Below the pieces are notes generated by a model. It saw only the letters and a program-made list of their open reading frames with translations, was not told the origin of the DNA and ran no database searches. Shown piece by piece: positions 85-63,270 of a stretch of 64,000 nucleotides of DNA (within the stretch, counting starts at the first letter, position 1; each line of letters starts with the position of its first letter). The position numbers and the translations under genes are program-made. The DNA comes from Clostridia bacterium (GTDB taxonomy: Bacteria > Bacillota > Clostridia > Christensenellales > Borkfalkiaceae). The stretch lies in assembly GCA_900767195.1 (NCBI GenBank), contig CAAFYG010000078.1, positions 32 through 64,031 of the forward strand, in the 5' to 3' direction.

Positions 85-265
85 AAAACAAGCTACGCCC
101 CTTGATTTTTAGAAATTTTTTGTCAAAAATATTCAGAAAATCAAAAATGGGCTTCGCCCCTTGATCTTCAGAAATTTCTTCCGAAATATTCAAAATATCA
201 AAAATCGGCTACGCCTCTCATCCGCCACCAAATGGCGACAGCTCCCTCCCCCGGGGGGGGGATAA
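85..265. repeat. Cluster of palindromic intergenic repeat units (family member A) ending in a G/C palindrome CCCCCGGGGGGGG
   Basis: Units 'cgccccttgattttcagaaatttcttccgaaatattcagaaaatcaaaaatgggct' repeated in tandem; same units recur at 11060, 22305, 31805, 59948. Confidence 0.7.
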
Positions 266-1304: not shown

Positions 1305-2276
1305 TTATTTCGCTTCTTCGTCTTGCCGGCGGCGGAAATTGCCCGATACCCCCGCCACTTCGGTGTAGTACACAAACGTATCGGGATATTTTTTCAGTAT
1401 GTTTAAAAACTCGGGAATCTGCCGCAGATTCACCACGGAAAAAATCACCGCGCTGTCGCTTTCCGTAAACATTCCCCGGCTGCCTACCACCGTTGCGCCG
1501 TGTTTCAGATTATACAAAATTTCCCCGCGGATTTCCTCGGGGTGTTTCGTGACGATTTTAAATTCCACGGCATTGCGCGAATCTTTCATAAACGCAGCCG
1601 CCACGCGCTCGTACGCGAACATCTGCACTACCGAAAGCAGAATGCTGTCCAGCTCGCGATACACCGCATACGAAATGAATATAATCGCATACGAAATCAC
1701 GGCGATCACGCGCTCTACGTTGAGATACGGGCGACTTTTCTGCACCATGCACGCCACGATGTCCACCCCGCCCGTAGACATGCCGATACGCAGCAACATT
1801 CCCATGCGCGCGCCCAGAATAATGCCCGAAAAAATCGCGGGCAAAAATCTGTCCGTTTCGGTGTGATACTGATAAAAATCGACGCGTTTTAAAACGATTA
1901 AAAACAGCGAATTCAATACGGTGAACGCGAGCGTGCCGATCACGTACCGCCTTTTCAGCACAAACAGCGCGGCAATTAAAAGCGGCGCGTTGAGCGCGAG
2001 CATATACCACCCCGCGTTGACGTTCGTGATTTTTTGCAGCATCGTAGCGATACCGTCCATGCCCGCCGGCGCAAAGTTCGCGGGATAGACAAACACGTGA
2101 AACCCAAACGCGGAAATAATCGAAGCAAGCAGCACCGTGGCGCAATCGATTAGCAGTTTTTTCACGGTTTTGCCGTCCGGTTTGTTTGTTTTGTTATGTT
2201 TAGCCGCGCCGTTTCGGGCGGCGTTTAAAGTAGTTTTTGTATCGTTGGCTTCGTTTTGCGGATTTTCAGCCGACAT
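1305..2276 (-). CDS. YitT family membrane protein, tandem paralog with low-complexity N-terminal extension
   Basis: 323 aa; STGGVD motif, C-terminal 'KHPEEIRGEILYNLKH...' matches upstream paralog; AAGGAG RBS. Confidence 0.8.
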   Translation of the reverse strand: MSAENPQNEANDTKTTLNAARNGAAKHNKTNKPDGKTVKKLLIDCATVLLASIISAFGFHVFVYPANFAPAGMDGIATMLQKITNVNAGWYMLALNAPLLIAALFVLKRRYVIGTLAFTVLNSLFLIVLKRVDFYQYHTETDRFLPAIFSGIILGARMGMLLRIGMSTGGVDIVACMVQKSRPYLNVERVIAVISYAIIFISYAVYRELDSILLSVVQMFAYERVAAAFMKDSRNAVEFKIVTKHPEEIRGEILYNLKHGATVVGSRGMFTESDSAVIFSVVNLRQIPEFLNILKKYPDTFVYYTEVAGVSGNFRRRQDEEAK

Positions 2277-2617
2277 AACCGTTCAAAGCTCCTTGCCGCA
2301 CGGAAATAAGCACCTGCGGCTATAACATTATACGCCATTTGCGGCGGAAAGTCAATAGCTTTTAAAATGCTTTTAAAATGCAAGTGAAAAATTTTTAACG
2401 CTATCCCTGCAAACGGCGCGCCGAAAAAGCACAAAAGCACCGCGCCGAACATAGCGGCATAGAAAAACGGCGTATATTCTTTGCCCGCGCGTGCGGAGCA
2501 CGGTTTCTGCGTAATGCTCGCCGCCGCGTTGGATAAAATCGGCAACGCGATATATGCCGCCGTCATAAAAGCGAGCGGAAAGCGTTGATACGAACTCTGC
2601 TTTATATCATCGAAGCG

Positions 2618-3265
2618 TTACAGTTTAAAGCATTTGCGCACGTCTTTGTACTCGCCGAGCACAAGCAGGTGCGCACCCTCTTCCACCACGGAATTGCAAT
2701 TCACCGAAAGCAGCGTTTTTCCTTCCTTTTTAAACGCGAGAATGTTCACGCCGAAACGTTTGCGGATATCGATTTCGCCCACCGTTTTTCCGATCCACGC
2801 GGCGGGCGGCGTAACTTCGAAAATGCCCGATTCGTCGCCGAGCTCGATATAGTCGCTTAAATTATCCGAAGCGTAGCGGATCGCCGTCCAGTACGCAAGC
2901 TGCCGTTCGGGGTATACGATATTGTCCGCGCCGTTGCGTAAAAGGAATTTCCCTTGCACGTCGTTGCAGGCGCGCGAAACCACCTTTTTCGCCCCGCAAT
3001 CTTTTAAAAGCGACGTGATTTCCAGCGAGGACTGAAAATCGTCGCCGATCGCCACGATGCAAAGATCGAAGCGCGGCACGTCGAGCGATTTTAAAAATTC
3101 CGCGCGCGTGCAATCGCCGATCCGCGCGTCCGTCACGTAGGGCAAAGCGTCGTTCACGCGCTCTTCGGTTTCGTCTACGGCAAGCACTTCGTGATCCATT
3201 TCGCTCAATTTCTTCGCCACGTTCAGTCCGAACCTTCCAAGACCTATCAATAATACGTTTTTCAT
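2618..3265 (-). CDS. ktrA: Potassium uptake system NAD-binding peripheral subunit TrkA/KtrA
   Basis: Start placed at internal MKNVLLIGLGRFG (Rossmann GxGxxG) with AAAGGAGA RBS; ORF frame extends to 3298. Confidence 0.75.
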   Translation of the reverse strand: MKNVLLIGLGRFGLNVAKKLSEMDHEVLAVDETEERVNDALPYVTDARIGDCTRAEFLKSLDVPRFDLCIVAIGDDFQSSLEITSLLKDCGAKKVVSRACNDVQGKFLLRNGADNIVYPERQLAYWTAIRYASDNLSDYIELGDESGIFEVTPPAAWIGKTVGEIDIRKRFGVNILAFKKEGKTLLSVNCNSVVEEGAHLLVLGEYKDVRKCFKL

Positions 3266-3294
3266 CTGATTTTTCTCCTTTTTCCGCCGTGGAA

Positions 3295-4647
3295 TCAACC
3301 CACCGCGATCGTGCCGAGCGGTAAGCTTCCGTCATCGCCGGATCTTCCGCCGAACGCCACCGCCGTAAACAGCGTAAGTCCGCCCACGCGCCCGAAATAC
3401 ATCAGCGCGATTAAAATAATGTGCGAAGCCGCCGAAAGTCCCGCCGTAATTCCCGTCGACAGCCCCACCGTGGCGATCGCCGAAGCCGTTTCGAACATAC
3501 AATCGACAACCGGCAATTTTTCGATCGACGAAATCGCAACGCTGCCCGCAAAAAACAGCGTGATGTACAAAAATGCGATCGTCGCCGCGTCTTTCACCGT
3601 ATCGCTCGAAATCCGCCTGCCGAAGCAGCGCACCTCTCTCCGTTTTCTCACCGCCGCGATCGCCGCGCAAAAAAGCACCGCCATCGTGGTGATTTTCATA
3701 CCGCCGGCAGTAGAGCCGGACGCGCCGCCGATCAGCATCAACGCAATCGTAACCAGGAGCGACGCCTCGCTCATTTTCGAGTAATCCACCGTATTAAACC
3801 CCGCCGTACGCGGCGTTACCGTCTGAAAAAACGAAGCGAGCGCGCGTTCGCCGCCCGAAAGCTCGGCCTTCCATGCCGCCGAAGAAAATTCCGCGAAATA
3901 GAAATACAAAGAAGGAATAAATACGAGCAGCGCGCCGAACAGAAGCACCGCTTTGCTCTGCACGGAATACTTTTTCAGCCGGAATTTGTTTCTGCCGATA
4001 TCGCCCCACACCGAAAAGCCGAGTCCGCCGCTCAAAATCAAGCCGCAAATCGTGAAATTCACAAGCGGAGAGCCTACGAACGCCGTCAGCGAAGAAAATC
4101 GCCCCGTTTCCGCGCCCATTAAATCGAATCCCGCATTGCAATACGCCGACACCGAGTGAAAAACCGCATACCAAAGTCCACGCGCGCCGAACCGCGAACA
4201 GAACGCGGGCATAAGCAGCAGCGCGCCGATCGTTTCTACGGCAAGCGAAAACAGTAAAATAAACCGCGCGTATCTCCACGCGCCTTTGCCTTCTTCGGCG
4301 GAAACCGATTCGAGCATGGTGTTCTGCCCGGAAAGCCTCAATTTTTTTCCCGCGGCAACGGCGAACGTCACGGCAAGCGTCACCACGCCCACGCCGCCCG
4401 CCTGAATCAGCGTAATAATCGTCAGTTTCCCGAATAAAGAAAAATACGTAGCCGTATCGCGCACGATCAACCCCGTAACGCACACGGCGGAAGTCGAAGT
4501 AAACAACGCGTCGAGAAAGGGCGTGCTTTCGCGGCTTCTCGTTGCAATCGGCAGCGAAAGCAGAATACTGCCGAGCAATATCGCCGCCGCATATCCCAGA
4601 ATAATCGTCTGTGCCGAAGTCAGCCGTCTGTTTTTCAAGTGTTCCAT
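3295..4647 (-). CDS. ktrB: Potassium uptake membrane subunit TrkH/KtrB
   Basis: ~450 aa polytopic protein with repeated pore-loop-like segments typical of TrkH/KtrB; overlaps ktrA start; start set at MEHLKN (ORF extends to 4716). Confidence 0.7.
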   Translation of the reverse strand: MEHLKNRRLTSAQTIILGYAAAILLGSILLSLPIATRSRESTPFLDALFTSTSAVCVTGLIVRDTATYFSLFGKLTIITLIQAGGVGVVTLAVTFAVAAGKKLRLSGQNTMLESVSAEEGKGAWRYARFILLFSLAVETIGALLLMPAFCSRFGARGLWYAVFHSVSAYCNAGFDLMGAETGRFSSLTAFVGSPLVNFTICGLILSGGLGFSVWGDIGRNKFRLKKYSVQSKAVLLFGALLVFIPSLYFYFAEFSSAAWKAELSGGERALASFFQTVTPRTAGFNTVDYSKMSEASLLVTIALMLIGGASGSTAGGMKITTMAVLFCAAIAAVRKRREVRCFGRRISSDTVKDAATIAFLYITLFFAGSVAISSIEKLPVVDCMFETASAIATVGLSTGITAGLSAASHIILIALMYFGRVGGLTLFTAVAFGGRSGDDGSLPLGTIAVG

Positions 4648-4728
4648 GCCTATAATTATATCACGCCGCAAAAAAAAGTCAAGCAAACAAAAACCGTTTG
4701 CCCGACTTTTTCCCAAGCTCCTTTTTCT

Positions 4729-5478
4729 CTACCCGATGTTACCCGGCACGCCGCCGAATGCCGCGCCTGCCGCCGCGCCGCGTTCCTCCTCTTCCGCGCG
4801 CCGGCTCTCGCCGCGGAACGCGTACAAATCGAATTCCGTTTCGATATCGAAATCTTCCGCGTTGTCGAAAGCGGCGAGTTTCGATACCGATACTTCGTAC
4901 GCCGTCATCGTCTTTGTTTCCGTTTCGCTGAGTTTTTTCTGATATTCGCGGCTCTGTATCCGCCCCGAAATCGCCACCTTATCCCCCACGGAAAGGTTTT
5001 TCACAAACCGTGCGTTGCGCCCCCATGCGATACACGGAATATAATCGGACTTATTATACGCGCGGTTTACGGCGATCAGCACGTCGGCAATTTCGCGGTT
5101 GAAAGGCGTAGTGCGGTACACGGGCGGCTTACAGATATACCCGCTTAAAAGAATGCCGTTCGGGTTTCTGTTCTCGTCGATTTCCTCGATGTCTCTAACG
5201 AACACCGTGAGCATCAGCCGCGATTTGCCGTTTTCCAGCTTATTATAGCTTCTGAATTGCCCCGACGCCGCCACGAAAGAGCCTTTTTTTAAATCGTGCG
5301 CTTCGATCAGGCGTTCGCTCACCGTTACGGGAAGCACGTCCGCCTGACCGGAAAGCCGCATCACTTTCAGGTAAAATTCGTAGAACCCCTCGCCGTACAC
5401 CTCGTGCGAGAACGTTTTATCCGATACGATCTCCCCCGTCACATACACCTTGTTGTTTTTTTCCGCCGCGTAATTCAT
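4729..5478 (-). CDS. SSB-like protein with two predicted OB-fold segments (single-stranded DNA-binding family, divergent)
   Basis: Second half 'IPCIAWGRNARFVKNLSVGDKVAISGRIQSREYQ...TMTAYEVSV' resembles SSB OB fold; ATG with GGAGGTG RBS (ORF track start is GTG at 5490). Confidence 0.45.
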   Translation of the reverse strand: MNYAAEKNNKVYVTGEIVSDKTFSHEVYGEGFYEFYLKVMRLSGQADVLPVTVSERLIEAHDLKKGSFVAASGQFRSYNKLENGKSRLMLTVFVRDIEEIDENRNPNGILLSGYICKPPVYRTTPFNREIADVLIAVNRAYNKSDYIPCIAWGRNARFVKNLSVGDKVAISGRIQSREYQKKLSETETKTMTAYEVSVSKLAAFDNAEDFDIETEFDLYAFRGESRRAEEEERGAAAGAAFGGVPGNIG

Positions 5479-9117: not shown

Positions 9118-10791
9118 ATGGAAGAAAAAAATTTAAACGAGCTTCTCGAAAGAGAAGATTTTGAGGGTGCAGCCGAATGCGCTCTCCGGCTCGGCGCGGA
9201 AGAATTTGCAAAAGTGCTTGCCGCGCTTAACGAAAAGTATCTGCAACCCTTATGCCGCGCGCTCGATTCCGATTTCCTCGCGGAAACCTTAATCCTTTTA
9301 GACGCGCCCCTTCAAAGCAAAATCATTTCCACCCTGCGCGACGACGAGTTGCAGGAAGTGATGGACGGCGTTTCCGTAGACGACACCGTGGAAATGATCG
9401 GCGACATGCCCGAAAAAATCGTGCGGCGCATTGCGGAAAAAGAAGAAATCGTCCGCCTTTTCGAAGAGCGGCGTTTTTCCGTGCTGAAACCGCTTCTCTC
9501 CTCGATGAACGCGCCGGACGTAGCGGCGGTTTTCGAAGAAGTGGAAGATGAAGATCTGCCCGTTTTATTCCGTATTCTGCCCAAAGATCTCGCAGCGGAT
9601 ACTTTCGTGGAAATGGATAAAGACACGCGCGAAAAGCTTCTGCACAAGCTGAGCGATCTCGAAGTGAAAGCCGTGATGGACGAACTGTTCGTAGACGACA
9701 CGGTAGACGTCATCGAAGAAATGCCCGCCAACGTTGTGAAGCGGCTGCTTGCGGCGAGCGATAAAGAAACGCGCGATTACGTAAACGAAATTTTAAAGTA
9801 CCCGAAAGACAGCGCCGGCAGTATCATGACGGTGGAATACGTTTCCCTTCGCCCCACCATGACGGTGAGCGAAGCGTTTTCGCGTATCCGCCGCACGGCG
9901 ATCGATAAAGAAACGATTTACACCTGCTACGTTACCGACGCGGCAAACAAGCTGATCGGCTGCGTATCGGCGAAAACGCTGATGATTTCCGCACCGGAAA
10001 CGAAAATTGCCGAAATCATGGACGAAAACGTGATCTACGCGCACACCGAAGACGACCGCGAAGACGTGGCGCGTAAAATTTCCAATTACGGCTTTCTCGC
10101 CCTGCCCGTGGTAGATAACGAACAGCGGCTTGTGGGCATCGTCACGGTAGACGACGCCATGGACGTCATTCAGGAAGAAAACACCGAAGATATCGCGAAA
10201 ATGGCGGCTATGACTCCCACCGACACGCCCTATTTAAAAACGAGCGTGTGGGGAATCTGGAAAAACCGCATACCGTGGCTGCTCGTTTTAATGGTGAGCG
10301 CAACGTTCACGGGGCTGATTTTAAACACCTACGAAGCGCGCCTTTCGGCGATTTCGCCCGTGCTTTTCGCCTGCGTGCCGATGATGATGGATACGGGCGG
10401 CAATGCCGGCTCGCAAGCTTCCGTCACCGTGATCCGCTCGCTCGCGCTCGACGAACTGGAAACGAGCGACGTTCTCAAAGTTTTGTGGAAAGAATTCCGC
10501 GCTTCGATTTTGCTCGGCTTAACGCTCGGAGCGGCGTGCTTTGGCAAGCTGATGCTCATCGATAATCTTTTATTCGGTTTCGAAGGCTACACCCCTCTTC
10601 GCTGCTGCGTGGTATCTTGCGCGCTGGTGCTTACGGTGATCGTGGCAAAACTTGTGGGTTGCACGCTGCCGCTTCTTGCCAAAAAATGCCGGCTCGACCC
10701 CGCCGTGGTGGCAAGTCCTTTCATCACCACGATTGTAGACGCGATTTCGCTGATTATCTACTGCAACCTTTCCGTGATGATTCTGGCATAG
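9118..10791 (+). CDS. mgtE: Magnesium transporter MgtE with duplicated N-terminal MgtE_N domain, CBS pair and C-terminal TM domain
   Basis: 557 aa; two successive MgtE_N-like helical repeats, CBS domains, 'MMDTGGNAGSQ' channel motif. Confidence 0.85.
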   Translation: MEEKNLNELLEREDFEGAAECALRLGAEEFAKVLAALNEKYLQPLCRALDSDFLAETLILLDAPLQSKIISTLRDDELQEVMDGVSVDDTVEMIGDMPEKIVRRIAEKEEIVRLFEERRFSVLKPLLSSMNAPDVAAVFEEVEDEDLPVLFRILPKDLAADTFVEMDKDTREKLLHKLSDLEVKAVMDELFVDDTVDVIEEMPANVVKRLLAASDKETRDYVNEILKYPKDSAGSIMTVEYVSLRPTMTVSEAFSRIRRTAIDKETIYTCYVTDAANKLIGCVSAKTLMISAPETKIAEIMDENVIYAHTEDDREDVARKISNYGFLALPVVDNEQRLVGIVTVDDAMDVIQEENTEDIAKMAAMTPTDTPYLKTSVWGIWKNRIPWLLVLMVSATFTGLILNTYEARLSAISPVLFACVPMMMDTGGNAGSQASVTVIRSLALDELETSDVLKVLWKEFRASILLGLTLGAACFGKLMLIDNLLFGFEGYTPLRCCVVSCALVLTVIVAKLVGCTLPLLAKKCRLDPAVVASPFITTIVDAISLIIYCNLSVMILA

Positions 10792-10946: not shown

Positions 10947-11030
10947 ATGTCAAGAAAGCAAAAATTCGACGGCGGCACGGCAAACGAACTTGCGCGGGCG
11001 GCGGCGAAAGAGTTTTCGCCTGTTTCGTAA
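10947..11030 (+). CDS. Small basic protein, 27 aa (MSRKQKFDGGTANELARAAAKEFSPVS), hypothetical
   Basis: ATG preceded by AAGGGGAAA RBS and consensus promoter 30 nt upstream; below ORF-track size cutoff. Confidence 0.4.
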   Translation: MSRKQKFDGGTANELARAAAKEFSPVS

Positions 11031-11059
11031 CGGATTGCTGCAAACTGTTTGAAATTTTA

Positions 11060-11350
11060 ATAACTGCCTTTGATATAGCCTTCCCCCTCGGGGGAAGGTG
11101 GACAAAGCAAAGCTTTGGACGGATGAGGGGCGCAGCATTTTTATGCGCAGCACATTTTTTGATTGAAATTTTTCCCCTGAAATTTTCAATCAAGGGGCGC
11201 AGCACATTTTTGATTTTCTGAATATTTCGGAAGAAATTTCTGAAGATCAAGGGGCACAACGCCTTTCGATATATAAAAAATCAAGCGGCGAAGCCGATTT
11301 TTGACTTTCCGAATATTTCGGAAGAAATTTCCGAAAAGCAAAAGGCGCGG
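11060..11350. repeat. Mosaic palindromic intergenic repeat cluster (family member B)
   Basis: Contains 'taactgcctttgatatagccttccccctcgggggaaggtggacaaagc...ggacggatgaggggcgcagc' plus tandem 'gattttctgaatatttcggaagaaatttctgaagatcaagggg' hairpin units; near-identical copy at 60055-60250. Confidence 0.75.
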
Positions 11351-12127: not shown

Positions 12128-12894
12128 ATTTTATCAAAGTAACGCAGGACAATATCGCCACGGAACACATCTGCTGCGCGATTTCAAACGAAAACGACGT
12201 GCAGGTATCTTCGAAAAAGGCTTGGCTGCGCGAACGTTTTCAAGACGGCTTAACCTTTTTAAAAGCGGATGCGCGGGGCAAATGTTTTATCGAATATCTG
12301 CCCGCCGAGCGCGGTTTCGAGCCGATTTCCGCGCCCGGATATATGCTGATTGATTGTTTTTGGGTGGCAGGCTCGCTCAAAGGCAACGGCTACGGCAAAG
12401 AGCTTTTGTCGCGCTGCATTGCGGATGCAAAATCGCAGGGCAAAATCGGGCTTTGCGCGATTTCTTCTGCAAAGAAACGACCGTATCTTTCCGATGGCGC
12501 GTTTTTGAAAAAAGCGGGGTTTCTTCTTGCCGACGAGGCCGCGCCCTACTTCACGCTTTTGTATCTGCCGTTTGAAAAAAGCGCAACCGAGCCAAAGTTT
12601 CTGCCGCAGGCGAAACGCCCGCAAACGCGCGGCTCGGGTTGGGAAATTTTCTACACGAACGCCTGCCCGTTCAACGCGAAATACGCGCCGCTTTTAAAGC
12701 AATTTGCCAACGAGCAGGGTATTCCGCTCACGCTGCGCCTGATCTCAACGCCCGAAGAAGCGCAGAAAATGCCGTTCGCGCACACCGCTTACGCCGCGTT
12801 TTACGGCGGCGAATACATAACCCACGAAGTGCTTACCGATAAAAAACTGCTCGCGCTGCACGAACGACTCGCGCCGCCCGCCGAAGAAAAATAG
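12124..12894 (+). CDS. GNAT N-acetyltransferase fused to YoaP-like C-terminal domain
   Basis: N-terminal acetyl-CoA binding fold 'LKGNGYGKELL'; C-terminal YoaP-like; ATGA overlap with upstream gene. Confidence 0.6.
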   Translation: MNFIKVTQDNIATEHICCAISNENDVQVSSKKAWLRERFQDGLTFLKADARGKCFIEYLPAERGFEPISAPGYMLIDCFWVAGSLKGNGYGKELLSRCIADAKSQGKIGLCAISSAKKRPYLSDGAFLKKAGFLLADEAAPYFTLLYLPFEKSATEPKFLPQAKRPQTRGSGWEIFYTNACPFNAKYAPLLKQFANEQGIPLTLRLISTPEEAQKMPFAHTAYAAFYGGEYITHEVLTDKKLLALHERLAPPAEEK

Positions 12895-12987
12895 CGCGCA
12901 AATTATGATTTTTTCCGAAATCCGAATAACCGTGAAATAAAAGTTTTTATAGTTTTGCATAAAAGTTTTTAATAGTATTAATAGTAT

Positions 12988-13022
12988 AAGCCGCCGAGCA
13001 AATCCTTTGCTCGGCGGCTTTC
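12988..13022. terminator. Perfect 13-bp stem hairpin GCCGCCGAGCAAA-tcc-TTTGCTCGGCGGC with T-rich 3' side
   Basis: Read directly; identical copy at 14133-14170. Confidence 0.6.
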
Positions 13023-13026
13023 AATT

Positions 13027-13625
13027 TTACTTATGCGGTAAATTATTTTCGCTGCTTAAAAATTGCAAAAGAGCAATTTTTTTGGAATCCGGTAATCGGC
13101 GAAAACATTTAAGAAGAATAAATTCTTGCGCCGAAAGTTTGTAAGTAGAAAACCCCGCAAAAAGCTCTTTTTCTGTTATCTCTAATGCGCGACATATCGC
13201 ATCCAAAGTTTTTGCAGACGGAAAATTTGAATTATTCAGAATACGGCATAGCCGAATAAAAACAAGCTTGAACGTGCCTGAAAGGGCGGCGTTTTCGCCC
13301 TTTTTTTCGCGTTCGCCCTTGATGTATCCCGATACACCTATGGGCGATTGCGCAAAAAATCATCAAAAACGCCGTCATTTCAGGTCGCTTCGCGAATTTA
13401 GCGAAACAAATCGCGACTTAGACAAGGCATTTGCGCGCAGTCGTGCAAACGCACAACAAGCACAAATAACACAGTATAAGGCACGATTTGTCCGCTAAAT
13501 CAATTCAAGCTTGTTTCTATTCGGCTTAGCGTTGTACCGGTTATCCCCGCCTTTTCGGCAAGTTTCCAATGCGGTATTTTTCTTTCTTTGCATATTTCTC
13601 TTATTCTTTCCGAAATATTAACCAT
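13027..13625 (-). pseudogene. XRE-family HTH regulator gene interrupted in-frame by a 231-bp insert with stop codons
   Basis: Fragment 1 (13500-13625) encodes MVNISERIREICKERKIPHWKLAEKAGITGTTLSRIETSLN*. Fragment 2 (13027-13272, same frame) encodes ...SNFPSAKTLDAICRALEITEKELFAGFSTYKLSAQEFILLKCFRRLPDSKKIALLQFLSS*, matching the C-terminal motif of the paralogs at 13739, 35616 and 54520. Confidence 0.55.
13251..13525. repeat. 22-bp inverted repeats (gccgaataaaaacaagcttgaa / ttcaagcttgtttctattcggc, 1 mismatch) bounding a 231-bp segment that carries a rho-independent terminator
   Basis: IR-L 13251-13272, IR-R 13504-13525; internal hairpin aaagGGCGGCgttttcGCCCtttttttc. Confidence 0.6.
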
Positions 13626-13738
13626 TTTTTCTCTGTTTATAGCATGAATTTTGTCAATAAAGTAGTTATATATAATATTATACTTTTTTATCTAAAAATT
13701 GTCAACAAAATTTAAGAAGTATTTGATATAATTCAAAT

Positions 13739-14086
13739 ATGGGATTTTCAGAAAAACTGAGAGAAATAAGAAAAGAAAGCGGAATGTCGCAAAAAGAAGC
13801 CGCGCAGAAATTAGGCTTATCGCCAAGCGGATACGCCGCGTGGGAACTCGGGAACACCGTGCCGGACGTAAACCGGGTAAACCGAATTGTGCAGGTTTTC
13901 AACGTTTCGGCGGATTATCTGTTAGAGATCAAAGGCGCGGCGAACGAGCCGTTGGTAACGGTATCCGCGGAAGCGACGTTGCCGAAAAACGAGCGGGAAT
14001 GGCTGAAAGCGTACCGCTCGCTTACGGATGAAGAGAAAAAGCAGGTGGAAGATTTTGCGGAATACATAAAAAGCAAAAGAAATTGA
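13739..14086 (+). CDS. XRE-family HTH transcriptional regulator
   Basis: N-terminal 'LREIRKESGMSQKEAAQKLGLSPSGYAAWELG' HTH_3; C-terminal 'EREWLKAYRSLTDEEKKQVEDFAEYI'; TATAAT 7 nt before ATG suggests a leaderless mRNA. Confidence 0.8.
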   Translation: MGFSEKLREIRKESGMSQKEAAQKLGLSPSGYAAWELGNTVPDVNRVNRIVQVFNVSADYLLEIKGAANEPLVTVSAEATLPKNEREWLKAYRSLTDEEKKQVEDFAEYIKSKRN

Positions 14087-14132: not shown

Positions 14133-14170
14133 AACGAAGCCGCCGAGCAAATCCTTTGCTCGGCGGCTTT
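14133..14170. terminator. Bidirectional hairpin terminator between XRE gene and ftsH, identical to the hairpin at 12988
   Basis: aagccgccgagcaaatcctttgctcggcggctttc. Confidence 0.6.
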
Positions 14171-14202
14171 CCGTCAAAATAAAATATCCGAAATACAAAC
14201 CT

Positions 14203-19699: not shown

Positions 19700-19832
19700 G
19701 CCTTATTCCAAGGCTTCCCCTTGCTTCATTTTGCTTACCGCAAAATTCAGCAAAAATTGTCAGCCTATTTCATAGGCTTCCCCTCGGGGGGAAGCTGTCC
19801 GTGAAACGGACGGATGAGGGGCAGTAACACAT
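19700..19832. repeat. Mosaic palindromic repeat cluster (family member C)
   Basis: 'ccaaggcttccccttgcttcattttgcttaccgcaaaattcagcaaaaattgtcagcc' + 'ggcttcccctcggggggaagc' + 'gacggatgaggggcagtaac'; shares modules with loci at 22305 and 11060. Confidence 0.7.
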
Positions 19833-19860
19833 TAAGCGTAAAGCAATCAAGAGCGCACGC

Positions 19861-22304: not shown

Positions 22305-22625
22305 TCTTTCCAAGGCTTCCCCTTGCTTCATTTTGCTCAACGCAAAACTCAGCAAAAATTGTCAGCCTCTTCGTGGCTTCCCCTTGCTTCATTTTGCTCA
22401 ATGCAAAATTCAGCAAAAATTGTCAGCCACTTCGTGGCTTCCCCTCGGGGGGAGGCTCTGCCCGATAGGGCGGTGGTGAGGGGCGTAGCATATTATGCTT
22501 AGCCCATTTTTGGTTTTCTGAATATTCCGGAAGGAATTTCCGAAAATCAAGGGGCGTAGCATTTTATGCGCAGCCCATTTTTTTGATTGAAAAATTTCGA
22601 TGAATTTTTTCAATCAAAGAGCGCA
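22305..22625. repeat. Mosaic palindromic repeat cluster (family member D, largest)
   Basis: Two tandem copies of 'ggcttccccttgcttcattttgctcaaCgcaaaaCtcagcaaaaattgtcagcc', 'ggcttcccctcggggggaggc', 'ggcggtggtgaggggcgtagc', then palindromic 'gattttc...gaaaatcaagggg' units. Confidence 0.75.
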
Positions 22626-31804: not shown

Positions 31805-32100
31805 CGCCCCTTGATTTTCAAAAATTTCTTGCGAAATATTCAGAAAATCAAAAATGGGCTGCGCCCCTTGATTGAAAATTTCTGATGGAAAAATTCAATC
31901 AAAAATGGGCTACGCCCCTTGATTTTCAGAAATTTCTTGCAAAATATTCAGAAAATCAAAAATGGGCTGCGCCCCTCATCAGTCGCTTTCAGCGACAGCT
32001 TCCCCCCCGGGGGGAAGCCTATGAAATAGGCGAAGATTAACTTTTAGACGATAGTGTTACAGTCCGTAACGAAACGGGCAATGCCCGCCCCGGGGGGAAG
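31805..32100. repeat. Mosaic palindromic repeat cluster (family member E): three tandem ~55-bp hairpin units plus G/C palindromes
   Basis: 'ccccttgattttcaNaaatttcttgcNaaatattcagaaaatcaaaaatgggctgcgcccc' x3 (middle unit variant), then 'agcttcccccccggggggaagcc' and 'cccgccccggggggaagcc'. Confidence 0.75.
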
Positions 32101-32304
32101 CCTTTTTTGCAACTTCAAAACGAAATTTTTTGCAGAAATAACGTTTTGCAGCTACAAACCGATTTTCGTTGCGTATGCGCGCGAAAGACACGAAGCGCGC
32201 GTATTTTGGAGCAGGAGCGTACAGAGACGTACGTGACTGCGACAAAAGCGCAAGCGCGACAAAGTATTTCGCGATGCAGACACGACGAAAAAACGTGCGA
32301 AAAA

Positions 32305-48128: not shown

Positions 48129-48203
48129 ATAACAATAAAATTTTAAACAACAACCGCCCCGGGGAAAAAAGGCAAATCGCCGCCTTTTCAGACGCGCTTA
48201 ACC

Positions 48204-49733
48204 TTATTTCCGTTTCATTAAATACTTAATTTTTTCAAAAACAACTTTGAATTCGCGGGTTTTAAAGGAAACCGACAAAAACACGGCGTTCGGCAGCGCA
48301 ATGCAGATCGCGCCTTTTAAAAGCAGCCACAAAACGCCCGTTTCGGGCAGTTTAAAACACACGAAGCAGGTGAGCGCGCCCGCCGCCGCCACAACCATGG
48401 TATATAAAAGCATGCGCAGATAGTATTTTGCGGGCGAAAAGCCGAAGTAATTTTTGAAAAACGCGTGCGTTTCCCAAGGCATCGAAACCACGAAAACTCC
48501 GGCTATGGTAGCCACGATTGCGCCGTTTACGCCCATTTTACCGATCAACGCCAGCGAAAGCAGCAGCGTTACCGCGGCAACGGTGTACGGCTTGAAAAAG
48601 TCGTCTTTCCACATGCCCGCCGCGTCTTTGTAGGTGGAAAGAATATCTTTGAATTTCCAAAGGTACAAAAGCAGCGCAAACAAAAATGCGGAAGAGTTGC
48701 CGAGCATTTTATCTTCGTCGCCGTTCATCCAGATGCGCATAAAGTGCTGAAACAGGCACAAAAGCGTGATGGACATCCATCCCACGAGCCACACGTTCAG
48801 AAAGGTGAGCGTATTGAAATCGTCGTAATTTTTCTTTACGTCCGCCGTAACGATATTGTTGCCGATGCCCGCCGTAAGCGCAGTGTACAGCACGGAAATA
48901 ATGGCGATAAGGGAATTTACGATATAGAAATAATTGTTGTACACGCCGAGAGTTTCCAACCCGAGGCGCGAAGAAATCACGATATTCGTGCCGGAAAAAA
49001 TCACCGTGCCGCTTAAGCGATGCCCGATCATCGCGCCGATATTTTTAAAAACGGCTTTCTTTTCCGCCTCGCCGAGCGTATCTTCCGCTTTGTAATCGGG
49101 GTATTTTTTATTGACGTACGCCGATCGCGCGAGATTGACGGATAGCGTGCAAAGCGGCAAAAACACGATATACACGTAGTAATTTTTAAAAATCAGCAGC
49201 ACCGCCACCTGCAAAACGTACATGGCGATATACGAAATCGTCATAATCACGTTTTCGATATCGTTGCGCTGAAACGCCGCAAGCAGCACGCTTTTATACG
49301 CGAACACAAAGTAGCTCACCACCGTGTTGGCAAGGTATATAAAATACAGAATGTATAAATTGATGTCCGCGGGAGCTTCGCCTTTGATCAGTTTTGGCAA
49401 AAACGGCGTAACGGCAAGCCCCGCAACGAGAATCGCCGCGCCCACGATATAATACACCTTTCGGATAAAGCCGAGCAGGGCGCACACAAGCGGCCTGTTA
49501 TCTTCCGCCACGGGTTTGTACATGGCAAACGCCACCACCGTGGAAAAGCCGAGTTCGGAAAGCGACAGCACCTGCAAAAGCGATGTGAAAAGCGAGCCTA
49601 ACCCGGCATATTCGATGCCGAGTTTCCGGATTAAAATCGTGCGGATGGCGAAGGGGAAAAGCAAGCACACCACGCGATAGATAATGCCGCTGACGGAATT
49701 TTTCACGGCGTTTTTCGTTCTTTCTATTTGCAT
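48204..49733 (-). CDS. MOP-superfamily polysaccharide biosynthesis protein / oligosaccharide flippase (Wzx-like)
   Basis: 509 aa, ~14 TM, N-terminal 'KNSVSGIIYRVV...IRKLG' typical of PF01943. Confidence 0.65.
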   Translation of the reverse strand: MQIERTKNAVKNSVSGIIYRVVCLLFPFAIRTILIRKLGIEYAGLGSLFTSLLQVLSLSELGFSTVVAFAMYKPVAEDNRPLVCALLGFIRKVYYIVGAAILVAGLAVTPFLPKLIKGEAPADINLYILYFIYLANTVVSYFVFAYKSVLLAAFQRNDIENVIMTISYIAMYVLQVAVLLIFKNYYVYIVFLPLCTLSVNLARSAYVNKKYPDYKAEDTLGEAEKKAVFKNIGAMIGHRLSGTVIFSGTNIVISSRLGLETLGVYNNYFYIVNSLIAIISVLYTALTAGIGNNIVTADVKKNYDDFNTLTFLNVWLVGWMSITLLCLFQHFMRIWMNGDEDKMLGNSSAFLFALLLYLWKFKDILSTYKDAAGMWKDDFFKPYTVAAVTLLLSLALIGKMGVNGAIVATIAGVFVVSMPWETHAFFKNYFGFSPAKYYLRMLLYTMVVAAAGALTCFVCFKLPETGVLWLLLKGAICIALPNAVFLSVSFKTREFKVVFEKIKYLMKRK

Positions 49734-53766: not shown

Positions 53767-54312
53767 TTATTCGAATTGATTAGCGAGAATATCGGCGGCG
53801 AGCCGCGTGAGCTTTACCGTCTCCGCTTCCGTTTTCGCACCCTCGTTTTTATCGAGAAGCGCCACAATGCCAAGGCAATCCCCGCCCGAAACCACCGGCA
53901 CGATCACCTGCGCGGCAAAGTCCGTTTCGCCCGCCGCCACTACGGGCAACATCTCTCCTCCTTCCGCTTTTGCCGCCGCGTAACTTCTGCGTTCTTTCAT
54001 CAGCTTATCCATTTCCGGCGAAAGCGTTTTGCCTGAAAATTCGCGTTTTCCCTCGCCGAAAGCGAACAAAACCCCGTCGGTGTCGCACACCACGGCAAGT
54101 TTACCGCTTAACTCGGCAAGCGATTTCGCGGCGGACTCGCTGAATTTTTCGATCGTGGCGATGGGCGAATATTTTTTCAGCATCAACTCGTCGCGGTCGG
54201 TGAAAATTTCCAGCGGATCGCCCTCGCGGATACGCAGCGTGCGCCTGATCTCTTTGGGAATCACCACTCTGCCAAGCTCGTCCATTCTTCTTACGATACC
54301 CGTAGCTTTCAT
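53767..54312 (-). CDS. spoVT: Stage V sporulation protein T (AbrB-type N-domain + GAF-like domain)
   Basis: MKATGIVRRMDELGRVVIPKEIRRTLRIREGDPLEIF nearly identical to Bacillus SpoVT N-terminus; GGAG RBS; ORF frame extends to 54348. Confidence 0.85.
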   Translation of the reverse strand: MKATGIVRRMDELGRVVIPKEIRRTLRIREGDPLEIFTDRDELMLKKYSPIATIEKFSESAAKSLAELSGKLAVVCDTDGVLFAFGEGKREFSGKTLSPEMDKLMKERRSYAAAKAEGGEMLPVVAAGETDFAAQVIVPVVSGGDCLGIVALLDKNEGAKTEAETVKLTRLAADILANQFE

Positions 54313-54519
54313 AAATTTGTCTCCTTTTTCACTAAAAACCGCGTGCATGCGGTTTTGTATCCTTTAACAGTTTGTCCGCACGAGAAAAATTTATGCAAAA
54401 ATAATAAAAAAGCTTTTGCCGCGCAAGCAAAAGCGATATAAACTCGTCGAATTTCTCTTCGATCTGCTTATTTTTCGTTTTTTTCGTTGTATTTCAAAAA
54501 AGCGAGATACGAACGCGCG

Positions 54520-59907: not shown

Positions 59908-59946
59908 TACCGCCGCGGGCGATCGTCCGCGGCGGTATTTGTTTTA
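59908..59946 (+). terminator. Rho-independent terminator after pyrP
   Basis: ACCGCCGCGG-gcgatcgtc-CGCGGCGGT-ATTTGTTTT. Confidence 0.6.
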
Positions 59947-59947
59947 A

Positions 59948-60250
59948 TAATTGCCTATACTATAAGCCTTCCCCCCGGGGGGCGGGCGTCGCCCGTTTCG
60001 TAACGCACCCACAGGGTGTTTCGTAACAGACTTTTACAAACAGCTTACAATTTTAATAATTGCCTTTGATATAGCCTTCACCTCGGGGGGAAGGTGGACA
60101 AAACGAAGTTTTGGACGGATGAGGGGCGTAGCCCATTTTTGATTTTTTGAATATTTCGGAAGAAACTTCTGAAAATCAAGGGGCGCAGCTTGTTTTCCGC
60201 TAAGCCCATTTTTTTTCTGAATTTTTTTGAGAAAAAATTTCAGAAAAAAA
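59948..60250. repeat. Mosaic palindromic repeat cluster (family member F), near-duplicate of cluster at 11060
   Basis: 'taattgcctttgatatagccttcacctcggggggaaggtggacaaaacgaagttttggacggatgaggggcgtagcccatttttgatttttt gaatatttcggaagaaacttctgaaaatcaaggggcgcagc'. Confidence 0.75.
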
Positions 60251-62169: not shown

Positions 62170-63270
62170 ATGAAATTCGTATGCGATTCCATCGATTTAT
62201 CTTACGCGGCAGGCACCGTGGTGAAAGCCTGCGCCGTGAGAACTCTCACGCCCGTGCTTGAATGTATCAGAATGCAGGTGAAAAACGACGGCGTTACGCT
62301 TTCCGCTTACGACGGCGAACTTTCGATCGAAAAAAGCTTTAAAGCAGACGTTCTGGAAGAAGGCGAAGCATGCGTGAACGGCAGACTTTTCACCGATTTT
62401 ATCGGCAAAATCGGCAATACGCAGATCACCGTAGGCACGGAAGAGCAAGGTCTTGAAATTCGCTACGACGATTCGCGTTCGTTTATGCAGGTGCTTCCCG
62501 CCGACGAATTTCCTCGCCTCGACTGCGGCGAAAGTATCGGCTCGTTCGAAGTGGAAGAAGGCAAATTCAAAAATCTCGTGGCGCGCAGTATTTTTTGTTG
62601 CGCGTCCGATGATTCCCGCCCTATTTTAAAGGGCTGTCTTTTAGAAACGGAAGGCGGCATGCTCCGCGCTTCCGCGCTCGACGGCTACCGTATGGCCACC
62701 ACCGAATGTGAAATCGCCGGCGGCGACGACGGCAAAAAAATCGTATGCCCGGCGCGTACGCTCGGCGAAATTTCAAGAATGCTCGCGGGGGCGGATAAGC
62801 TTTTAAAAGTAGAATTTTCGGCGAACCATCTGCGCGTCGTCGTAGACGAAACCACGCTGATTTCTCGCTTGTATACGGGCGAATTCGTAAAGCGCGAGAA
62901 TATTTTCCCGCCTTCATTCACCACGGAAGTCACTTTGAAGCGCACGGAACTTATCGAGAGCGTAGAGCGCGCGAGCGTTCTTATCCGCGGCGAGAAAAAC
63001 AACCTGATCATTATGGAAGTGAAAGGCGGCGCGGTGTACGTAACGGCAAATTCCGAAATCGGCAACGTGGCGGAAAAGGTGAACGCCGTGCTTGAAGGCA
63101 AAGAAATCCGCATCGCCATGAACGGAAAATACGTGCTTGACGCTTTAAAAGCGCTCGACGAAGAAGAGATCGTGATGTATATGAATACGCCGATCGCGCC
63201 GTTCGTTCTGAAAAATAAAAAAAATAAATACGGGGCATATCTCATTTTACCTGTGAGAACAACCGCATAA
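62170..63270 (+). CDS. dnaN: DNA polymerase III subunit beta (sliding clamp)
   Basis: 366 aa, three-domain clamp; 'ARTLGEISRML', C-terminal 'LILPVR'; AGGGAGG RBS. Confidence 0.95.
   Translation: MKFVCDSIDLSYAAGTVVKACAVRTLTPVLECIRMQVKNDGVTLSAYDGELSIEKSFKADVLEEGEACVNGRLFTDFIGKIGNTQITVGTEEQGLEIRYDDSRSFMQVLPADEFPRLDCGESIGSFEVEEGKFKNLVARSIFCCASDDSRPILKGCLLETEGGMLRASALDGYRMATTECEIAGGDDGKKIVCPARTLGEISRMLAGADKLLKVEFSANHLRVVVDETTLISRLYTGEFVKRENIFPPSFTTEVTLKRTELIESVERASVLIRGEKNNLIIMEVKGGAVYVTANSEIGNVAEKVNAVLEGKEIRIAMNGKYVLDALKALDEEEIVMYMNTPIAPFVLKNKKNKYGAYLILPVRTTA

Follow-up and report, generated by a model that had tools for sequence, protein, structure and literature searches.

Clostridial RecV-type switches place a 20-30-bp inverted-repeat pair around a few hundred base pairs and bring about a premature stop in one orientation. 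Invertons in general are defined by inversion observed at read level (bioRxiv 10.1101/2023.03.11.532203). The hallmarks of bacterial MITEs are terminal inverted repeats, a terminal 5'-TA-3' and a target-site duplication (PMC2229807). RUP, the repeat unit of pneumococcus, is a MITE for which mobilisation by IS630-Spn1 has been proposed, and TA targeting is the argument that links the two (PMC2229807). Integration at TA is also stated for Tc1/mariner elements in a passage of a further report (PMC2831304), and IHF-site and promoter features have been described for the Correia elements (PMC2229807). Flanking inverted repeats are common to any TIR transposon, and this feature therefore does not discriminate an inverton from a transposon.

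The locus described here lies in a 64,000-nt stretch of DNA (the window) and consists of a minus-strand regulator gene broken by a segment with inverted-repeat ends. Three mechanisms had been offered by the first-pass annotation, namely a MITE-like insertion, a recombinase-driven invertible switch and a programmed gene-disruption element. Our analysis supports the first of these through empty and filled sites, a TA duplication, conserved terminal repeats of approximately 24 nt and copies sequenced at six other loci (about three more are inferred). The segment is very probably a MITE with a 275-nt non-coding core and terminal inverted repeats of about 24 nt, inserted at a TA in codons 33-34 of the regulator gene. 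The family is apparently undescribed, its kind is well known and the insertion itself is ordinary; mildly unusual are only its maintained three-stem structure and a possible reuse of its terminator-like end.

The presence of an interrupted XRE/HTH gene on the minus strand was borne out by translation, by the domain match of the reconstruction and by protein search. The N-terminal reading frame runs from an ATG at 13625 to a stop at 13500 (minus strand). Its native portion, codons 1-33 (MVNISERIREICKERKIPHWKLAEKAGITGTTL; 13527-13625, minus strand), is colinear with the intact 106-aa orthologs P0001-P0004 and ends at 13527 (codon 33, CTA), with native sequence resuming at 13248. The last two bases of this fragment (TA, 13528-13527) constitute one copy of the target-site duplication. 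The remainder of the frame (13500-13526, minus strand) is a non-native, element-encoded tail, SRIETSLN plus a stop, as judged from the translation, from the SRILNNS of the orthologs and from the occurrence of the same arm at unrelated loci. The native C-terminal fragment (codons 34-106 plus stop; 13027-13248, minus strand) is out of frame with the N-terminal fragment, and its first codon, codon 34, is TGC (Cys) versus AGC (Ser) in the orthologs. The interruption had been described as an in-frame gap of 228 nt. On the minus strand the two pieces occupy different frames, frame 0 for the N-terminal one and frame 2 for the C-terminal one; the gap is therefore not in frame, and removal of the 231-nt interior fails to restore the gene. 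Set against the intact orthologs, the window has a net insertion of 278 nt and a second assembly (L016) one of 277 nt, not 228 or 231 nt.

The protein reconstructed by deletion of 278 nt matches HTH_26, HTH_19 and HTH_3 (Pfam) and was used as the query for the ortholog search. The alignment to intact relatives gave the uninterrupted gene: P0001-P0004, each of 106 aa, share 90-94% identity with the query and read ...T[TS]LSRILNNSNFPSAKTL... / ...TLSRILNNSNF... in this region. As a result of the insertion the protein keeps 33 native residues at its N-terminus, has an incomplete HTH domain, and ends with 8 element-encoded residues and a stop; 73 C-terminal codons are left out of frame. Because the truncation falls within the HTH and the remainder is out of frame, the regulator gene is a pseudogene, inactivated in this lineage. 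The disrupted gene still has a strong sigma-70-type consensus promoter (13677-13705, minus strand; TTGACA, 17-nt spacer, TATAAT; 12/12 matches), situated in the intergenic region that it shares with the divergent HTH gene at 13739-14086, and a palindromic terminator hairpin 3' of the gene (12988-13020, plus strand), detected by terminator scan. Near-identical palindromic terminator hairpins of about 33 nt (AAGCCGCCGAGCAAA...TTTGCTCGGCGGCTT) were observed at window positions 12988-13022 and 14137-14171, the former downstream of the disrupted regulator and the latter downstream of the divergent 115-aa HTH gene.

Comparison with orthologous loci demonstrated the insertion directly. The window and the ortholog loci have a common neighbourhood, in which FtsH is followed by the divergent 115-aa HTH gene and then by the regulator gene. 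Empty sites were found at eight loci (L001-L007 and L010): nucleotide alignment showed that L001-L005 and L010 are without the segment, and the protein encoded by L006 and L007 is intact and identical to that of L004 and L005. The flanks of L010 are 95-96% identical to the window. The filled site was present in five assemblies, comprising the window, a Logan contig ending within the element (L008), a contig beginning within it (L009), a human-gut contig that begins 24 nt before it (L011), and L016. The filled site of L016 reads ACGC-TA-[275-nt core]-TA-TGCCGG. Among the empty sites the sequence is TCGC-TA-AGCAGA in L010, the closest of them, and ACGC-TG-AGCCGG in those more distant. Since empty sites have one dinucleotide where filled sites have a TA on both sides of the core, the TA is a 2-bp target-site duplication, read from the empty and filled alleles of the regulator locus alone. 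A side observation concerns P0006 (ENA contig, 1107 nt), an empty-site ortholog (...SRILNNSNFPS...) with the N-terminal part read in another frame, which points either to a separate frameshift of this regulator gene in a different lineage or to an error of assembly.

The same comparison moves the limits of the insertion slightly outwards from the 13251-13525 proposed earlier. The TA at the left lies at 13249-13250, matching the single dinucleotide of the empty sites (L010: TCGC-TA-AGCAGAATT), and the TA at the right lies at 13527-13528. Between them is the 275-nt core itself (GCCGAAT...ATTCGGC; 13251-13525), placed on the plus strand by its read-through ORF (13268-13498) and delimited by identity to other copies and by full-length profile matches. 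An extra T (13526 or 13527, the feature being placed at 13526) occurs at the right junction in the window, L008 and L011 and not in L016; it is read as a later 1-nt polymorphism or mutation. This extra T, a 1-nt insertion in the N-terminal gene fragment of L008, and the codon-34 Cys in place of a conserved Ser agree with the decay of a pseudogene.

The inverted repeat with one mismatch that had been noted at this locus was confirmed. Its arms (13250-13272 and 13504-13526) are 23 nt long and are separated by a 231-nt spacer, and a recount established that they are true reverse complements at 22 of 23 positions. The chance expectation for such a repeat was 0 (100 dinucleotide-preserving shuffles, at most 3 mismatches). 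A search of the window for the arm with up to 3 mismatches returned exactly two sites, both of them the arms, and BLAST of the segment against the 64-kb window showed a single full copy and no second one. As parts of the element, the left terminal inverted repeat (TAGCCGAATAAAAACAAGCTTGAA; 13251-13272, plus strand) measures 24 nt with its flanking TA and shows compensatory changes with the other arm across copies (helix 1). The right terminal inverted repeat (13504-13525, plus strand) is conserved across copies, with changes coordinated with those of the left arm.

A search for further copies of the repeat and interior was productive, with six more sequenced loci and about three inferred ones, all unrelated, so that dispersal to unrelated loci is directly observed. 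The handle for this search was the 76-codon read-through frame at 13268-13498 (plus strand). Five ORF clusters containing the element came from the first protein search and six more from a profile search, and the approximately three further copies are inferred from read-through ORF clusters P0014, P0015 and P0018. Identity to the window copy is 86-91% in L012-L015 and about 85% in L017 and L018, and the profile matches span the full length of the element. The size is exactly TA + 275 + TA = 279 nt in five of the six other loci, with one extra internal base in L018. The ends of the copies follow the consensus TAGCCGAATrrrAAyAAGCTTGAA and its reverse complement, giving terminal inverted repeats of about 24 nt, and the TA is intact on both sides at 5/7 loci (both same-locus sequences counted), the ends of L017 and L018 being mutated.

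These copies occupy varied surroundings. One lies on a 67.6-kb contig (L012), with a UxuA-like gene on one side and a short-chain dehydrogenase (SDR) gene on the other. This copy (10021-10299) separates two co-directional genes of a hexuronate-type operon in an orientation in which the terminator-like hairpin of its left end faces the incoming transcript, and a polar effect on the operon is possible. Three copies are on short contigs with unrelated flanks (L013, L014 and L015). The copy in L017 (5045-5323) lies beside ArdA and a phage-type integrase (region 1332-5323) on a contig that ends 56 nt past the element; these neighbours place it on an ICE-like mobile island, a possible route of spread between genomes. 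The copy in L018 (1805-2084) is inside a gene for a HAD-type hydrolase (FDLDGTL motif; region 1449-2433), with the N-terminal half of the hydrolase running into the element and the C-terminal half coming after it. In this decayed copy, with ends CA...TG and one extra core base, deletion of 277 or 280 nt restores the HAD frame and deletion of 278 nt does not. With the hydrolase, this MITE family has inactivated a second gene. Metagenome contigs break within or beside the element (L008, L009, L011 and L017) and most element-carrying contigs are shorter than 2 kb, both of which would be expected of a repeat that occurs several times per genome. A 53-nt relic was also observed in the window at 48162-48214 (minus strand), matching MITE profile positions 7-60 (nhmmer E = 1.8e-6) and covering the terminal repeat and the terminator-like hairpin. 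It directly follows the stop codon of a 509-aa gene (48204-49733), for which it could serve as terminator.

The dispersed copies decide how the arms are to be understood. SRIETSL had been taken as part of the HTH and the right arm as a piece of the gene duplicated in inverted orientation. The orthologs read ...TLSRILNNSNFPSAKTL... at this position and the arm is conserved at unrelated loci; the arm is therefore the terminal inverted repeat of the element itself, not a duplicated HTH piece. What had made it look gene-derived is the native flank (GCCG[GT]AT), which resembles the element end (GCCGAAT) at 6 of 7 positions, a resemblance that we ascribe to chance or to a mild preference in target choice. 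The outer 9 nt of the arm (AGCCGAATA) resemble native codons (AGCCGGATT in the orthologs, TGCCGTATT in the right flank of the window), as they would if a hairpin-mediated or template-switch event had made an inverted duplication of gene sequence on a single occasion, leaving a degenerate pseudogene and involving no mobile element. That likeness amounts to 6/7 bases at one offset, with chance estimated at a few percent, whereas the full arm, including AGCCGAAT, is conserved at unrelated loci with different flanks and the interior is common to those copies as well. The dispersed copies refute a one-off local inverted duplication, and we leave it practically no probability. An imperfect 12-nt duplication (CTAAGCCGAATA / CTATGCCGTATT) combined with an inverted gene copy was also considered and was rejected, as AGCCGAAT belongs to the element end in other copies.

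The same data bear on the proposed invertible switch, in which the 23-bp repeats would be recombination sites of a recombinase-driven intragenic inverton and a flip of the 231-bp interior would toggle the product. The inverted-repeat pair of an inverton is present with suitable length and spacing, and intragenic invertons that recode a protein or add a premature stop are documented (bioRxiv 10.1101/2023.03.11.532203). The flipped orientation would moreover join the N-terminal fragment in frame to a 75-codon open frame. This in-frame fusion is automatic, given that the ORF starts inside the arm, and the openness elsewhere is an ascertainment effect. All 5/5 assemblies with the insertion at the regulator locus, which come from different samples, carry it in one and the same orientation, so that the check for both orientations, made at assembly level, gave no sign of inversion. 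The flipped 115-aa fusion is absent from a protein database of 5.8 billion clusters, in which the forward-form fragment (P0007) is present. The ancestral protein is recovered in neither orientation, since relative to the orthologs the segment in its entirety is an insertion of 277-278 nt. The segment with its TA flanks also occurs at unrelated loci, once inside another gene, and a TA duplication together with dispersed copies are signatures of transposition. Finally, neither the 20 window ORFs scanned nor the syntenic loci yielded a recombinase. An invertase need not be encoded close to its sites, and its absence from the window is therefore not decisive. Altogether the invertible switch is unsupported and we consider it very improbable.

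Programmed gene disruption, the third mechanism offered, fared no better. Precise removal of the core and one TA would restore the intact 106-aa frame, as if the segment were excised to restore the regulator in the manner of developmentally excised intervening elements. Known intervening elements are far larger than this one. The segment contains no recombinase and none was found nearby (20 window ORFs scanned), and its copies reside in intergenic DNA and unrelated genes, which are arbitrary insertion locations. Its presence or absence is polymorphic among close relatives, and decay has followed insertion: the junction in the window is mutated by the extra T, the gene fragment in L008 has the 1-nt insertion, and restoration would leave a Cys codon at a position where every ortholog has Ser. 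We consider programmed excision very improbable, if anything a shade less credible than the switch.

Results of the coding analysis agree with a MITE. The read-through ORF of the element has no Pfam match. Its variable columns fall at codon positions 1, 2 and 3 in the numbers 16, 24 and 18, without third-position bias, and the amino-acid identity between copies (71-82%) is only 0.4-1.5 sd above the neutral expectation obtained by random placement of the observed nucleotide differences. The read-through frame was consequently rejected as coding by the codon-position and neutral-identity tests. The frame is open in the retrieved copies because they were found via called ORFs, and frameshifts are present in P0017 and P0018. 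Nothing indicates that the element encodes a protein.

Structural analysis gave a positive signal. As a single strand the whole element folds at -83 kcal/mol (z = -9.5 versus shuffles), and in the predicted fold a stem of the terminal repeats closes two long imperfect hairpins. Hairpin A (13276-13385, plus strand; 110 nt) contains helices 2-4, which are 97-100% paired across copies, and hairpin B (13396-13500, plus strand) contains helices 6-9, with 7 pairs showing compensatory changes. Across eight related sequences 96.7% of cells are paired. Both sides have changed in 12 compensatory pairs versus 6.2 +/- 1.6 in column shuffles, and controls in which partners were slid by 1-3 columns gave 0-3 such pairs. 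These eight related sequences provide moderate evidence that the palindromic three-stem architecture is maintained, and the conserved three-stem fold is itself directly observed. The strong terminator noted earlier inside the segment (GGGCGGCGTTTTCGCCCTTTTTTT; 13283-13306, plus strand) stood in part: a terminator-like GC stem with a T-run exists there, just inside the left end and facing inward, and is conserved in all copies, but it was missed by a consensus terminator scan and forms part of the 110-nt hairpin in the whole-element fold.

These features raise a reading compatible with a MITE, in which the element doubles as a structured RNA with a function, or as a regulatory module, providing terminators or processing sites. 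The three-stem architecture kept by compensatory changes and the terminator-like hairpin and T-run just inside the left end of all copies agree with it, as does the position of the 53-nt left-end relic directly after the stop codon of the gene at 48204-49733, and RNA-level roles have been described for the Correia/NEMIS elements (PMC2229807). Compensatory changes in a palindromic transposon can, on the other hand, reflect constraints on DNA ends or hairpins rather than on RNA. The counts of G-U versus A-C favour neither strand clearly, an Rfam scan of 12800-14000 at E <= 10 returned only noise and no family match, and the evidence comes from only eight mutually related sequences. We regard an RNA-level function as unlikely, with perhaps a minor chance of being correct. 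Slightly more doubtful still is the idea that the family is more than selfish DNA, either as a portable, orientation-dependent terminator or RNA-processing module in gut Firmicutes or through an unusual transposition route that depends on hairpin DNA.

With respect to mechanism, the insertion at the TA in codons 33-34 of the gene for a 106-aa XRE/HTH_26-type regulator duplicated that TA. The element would move by cut and paste, with catalysis supplied in trans by a DDE transposase from one of the TA-duplicating families, of which IS630/Tc1-mariner is the likeliest. We propose IS630/Tc1-mariner-type mobilisation, which we consider probable, on the strength of the terminal repeats, the terminal TA, the duplicated TA and the missing coding capacity, and insertion at and duplication of TA is what that family displays. 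Some IS5-family subgroups also give 2-4-bp duplications containing TA. TA duplication is thus not exclusive to IS630, and the family assignment is provisional. With regard to class, the element is small and non-protein-coding, has terminal inverted repeats and a target-site duplication (at one locus) and is repeated at unrelated loci. MITEs are typically, not strictly, shorter than 200 bp and A+T-rich, and in these two respects this element departs from the type, with 279 nt and 48% GC in a window of 50% GC.

Searches for a parent or a longer relative of the element were uniformly negative within their scope. The 20 window ORFs scanned include no transposase, nor do the gene tables of the fetched loci, and a profile search of the window and the fetched loci found no parent element with matching ends. 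An exact 24-mer of the interior is absent from species-representative genomes and viral contigs and has one match in the JGI metagenomes, which is L011, the same regulator locus. The terminal-repeat pattern is absent from the collection of genome contigs, three further conserved or degenerate element patterns are absent from viral contigs, and blastn of the element against plasmid and phage collections gave no match. None of the exact-pattern scans with arm or interior, across genome, metagenome and viral collections, revealed a longer element.

Other features of the window were recorded alongside the element. A separate intergenic repeat family, with a unit of 57 nt (consensus CGCCCCTTGATTTTCAAAAATTTCTTGCGAAATATTCAGAAAATCAAAAATGGGCTG), forms short tandem arrays, each of 2-3 copies, at window positions 92-215, 11016-11294, 19755-19840, 22438-22582, 31805-32109 and 59942-60191, and this family also occurs in the related contigs L010 and L011. 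A different tandem repeat at 22314-22445 has a period of 61 nt, 2.2 copies and 95% matches. The window encodes SpoVT (53767-54348) and DnaN (62170-63270), and its position may be close to the replication origin. The related contigs derive from human gut metagenomes; SpoVT and these sample sources indicate a gut Firmicute that forms spores.

Recognition of the MITE insertion explains the pseudogene and corrects its misreading as an internal gene rearrangement or switch, an appearance that arose because the terminal repeat of the element translates by chance to the HTH-like "LSRIE". Inverton finders that are based on inverted repeats will flag TIR-bounded MITEs inside genes, and comparison of empty and filled sites combined with a search for dispersed copies separates the two cheaply. 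The work also adds an apparently undescribed family of 279-nt TA-flanked MITEs from human-gut Firmicutes, with copies in chromosomal genes, operons and an ICE-like island, that could be used to mark strains and could offer a lead towards an active IS630-like transposase.

In comparison with known systems, the element resembles RUP in being non-coding, in its terminal inverted repeats, TA insertion and dispersed copies, and in gene disruption (PMC2229807). RUP differs in its length of 107 bp, in its Streptococcus host and in having a candidate parent IS with matching ends, IS630-Spn1 (PMC2229807), whereas the present element is 279 bp long, comes from gut Firmicute metagenomes, contains two long internal hairpins and has no parent found. 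Classical bacterial MITEs are in general shorter and more A+T-rich than this element of 279 nt and 48% GC (PMC2229807). With the Correia/NEMIS elements of Neisseria it shares terminal repeats of about 25 nt, a terminal TA, a long stem-loop when transcribed and possible effects on the expression of neighbours (PMC2229807). Correia elements are, however, about 105-155 bp long and belong to another host, and no sequence similarity to them was detected (no Rfam match). Unlike the intragenic invertons (bioRxiv 10.1101/2023.03.11.532203), with which it has in common a 20-30-bp inverted-repeat pair around a few hundred bp within a gene and a premature stop in one orientation, it is seen in one orientation, is missing from orthologs, is flanked by a TA duplication and occupies many unrelated loci. 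The Rickettsia palindromic elements (RPE) are likewise palindromic mobile repeats inside protein-coding genes, but RPEs are in frame and are tolerated in functional proteins (PMC2229807), whereas here a stop and a frameshift destroy the HTH domain.
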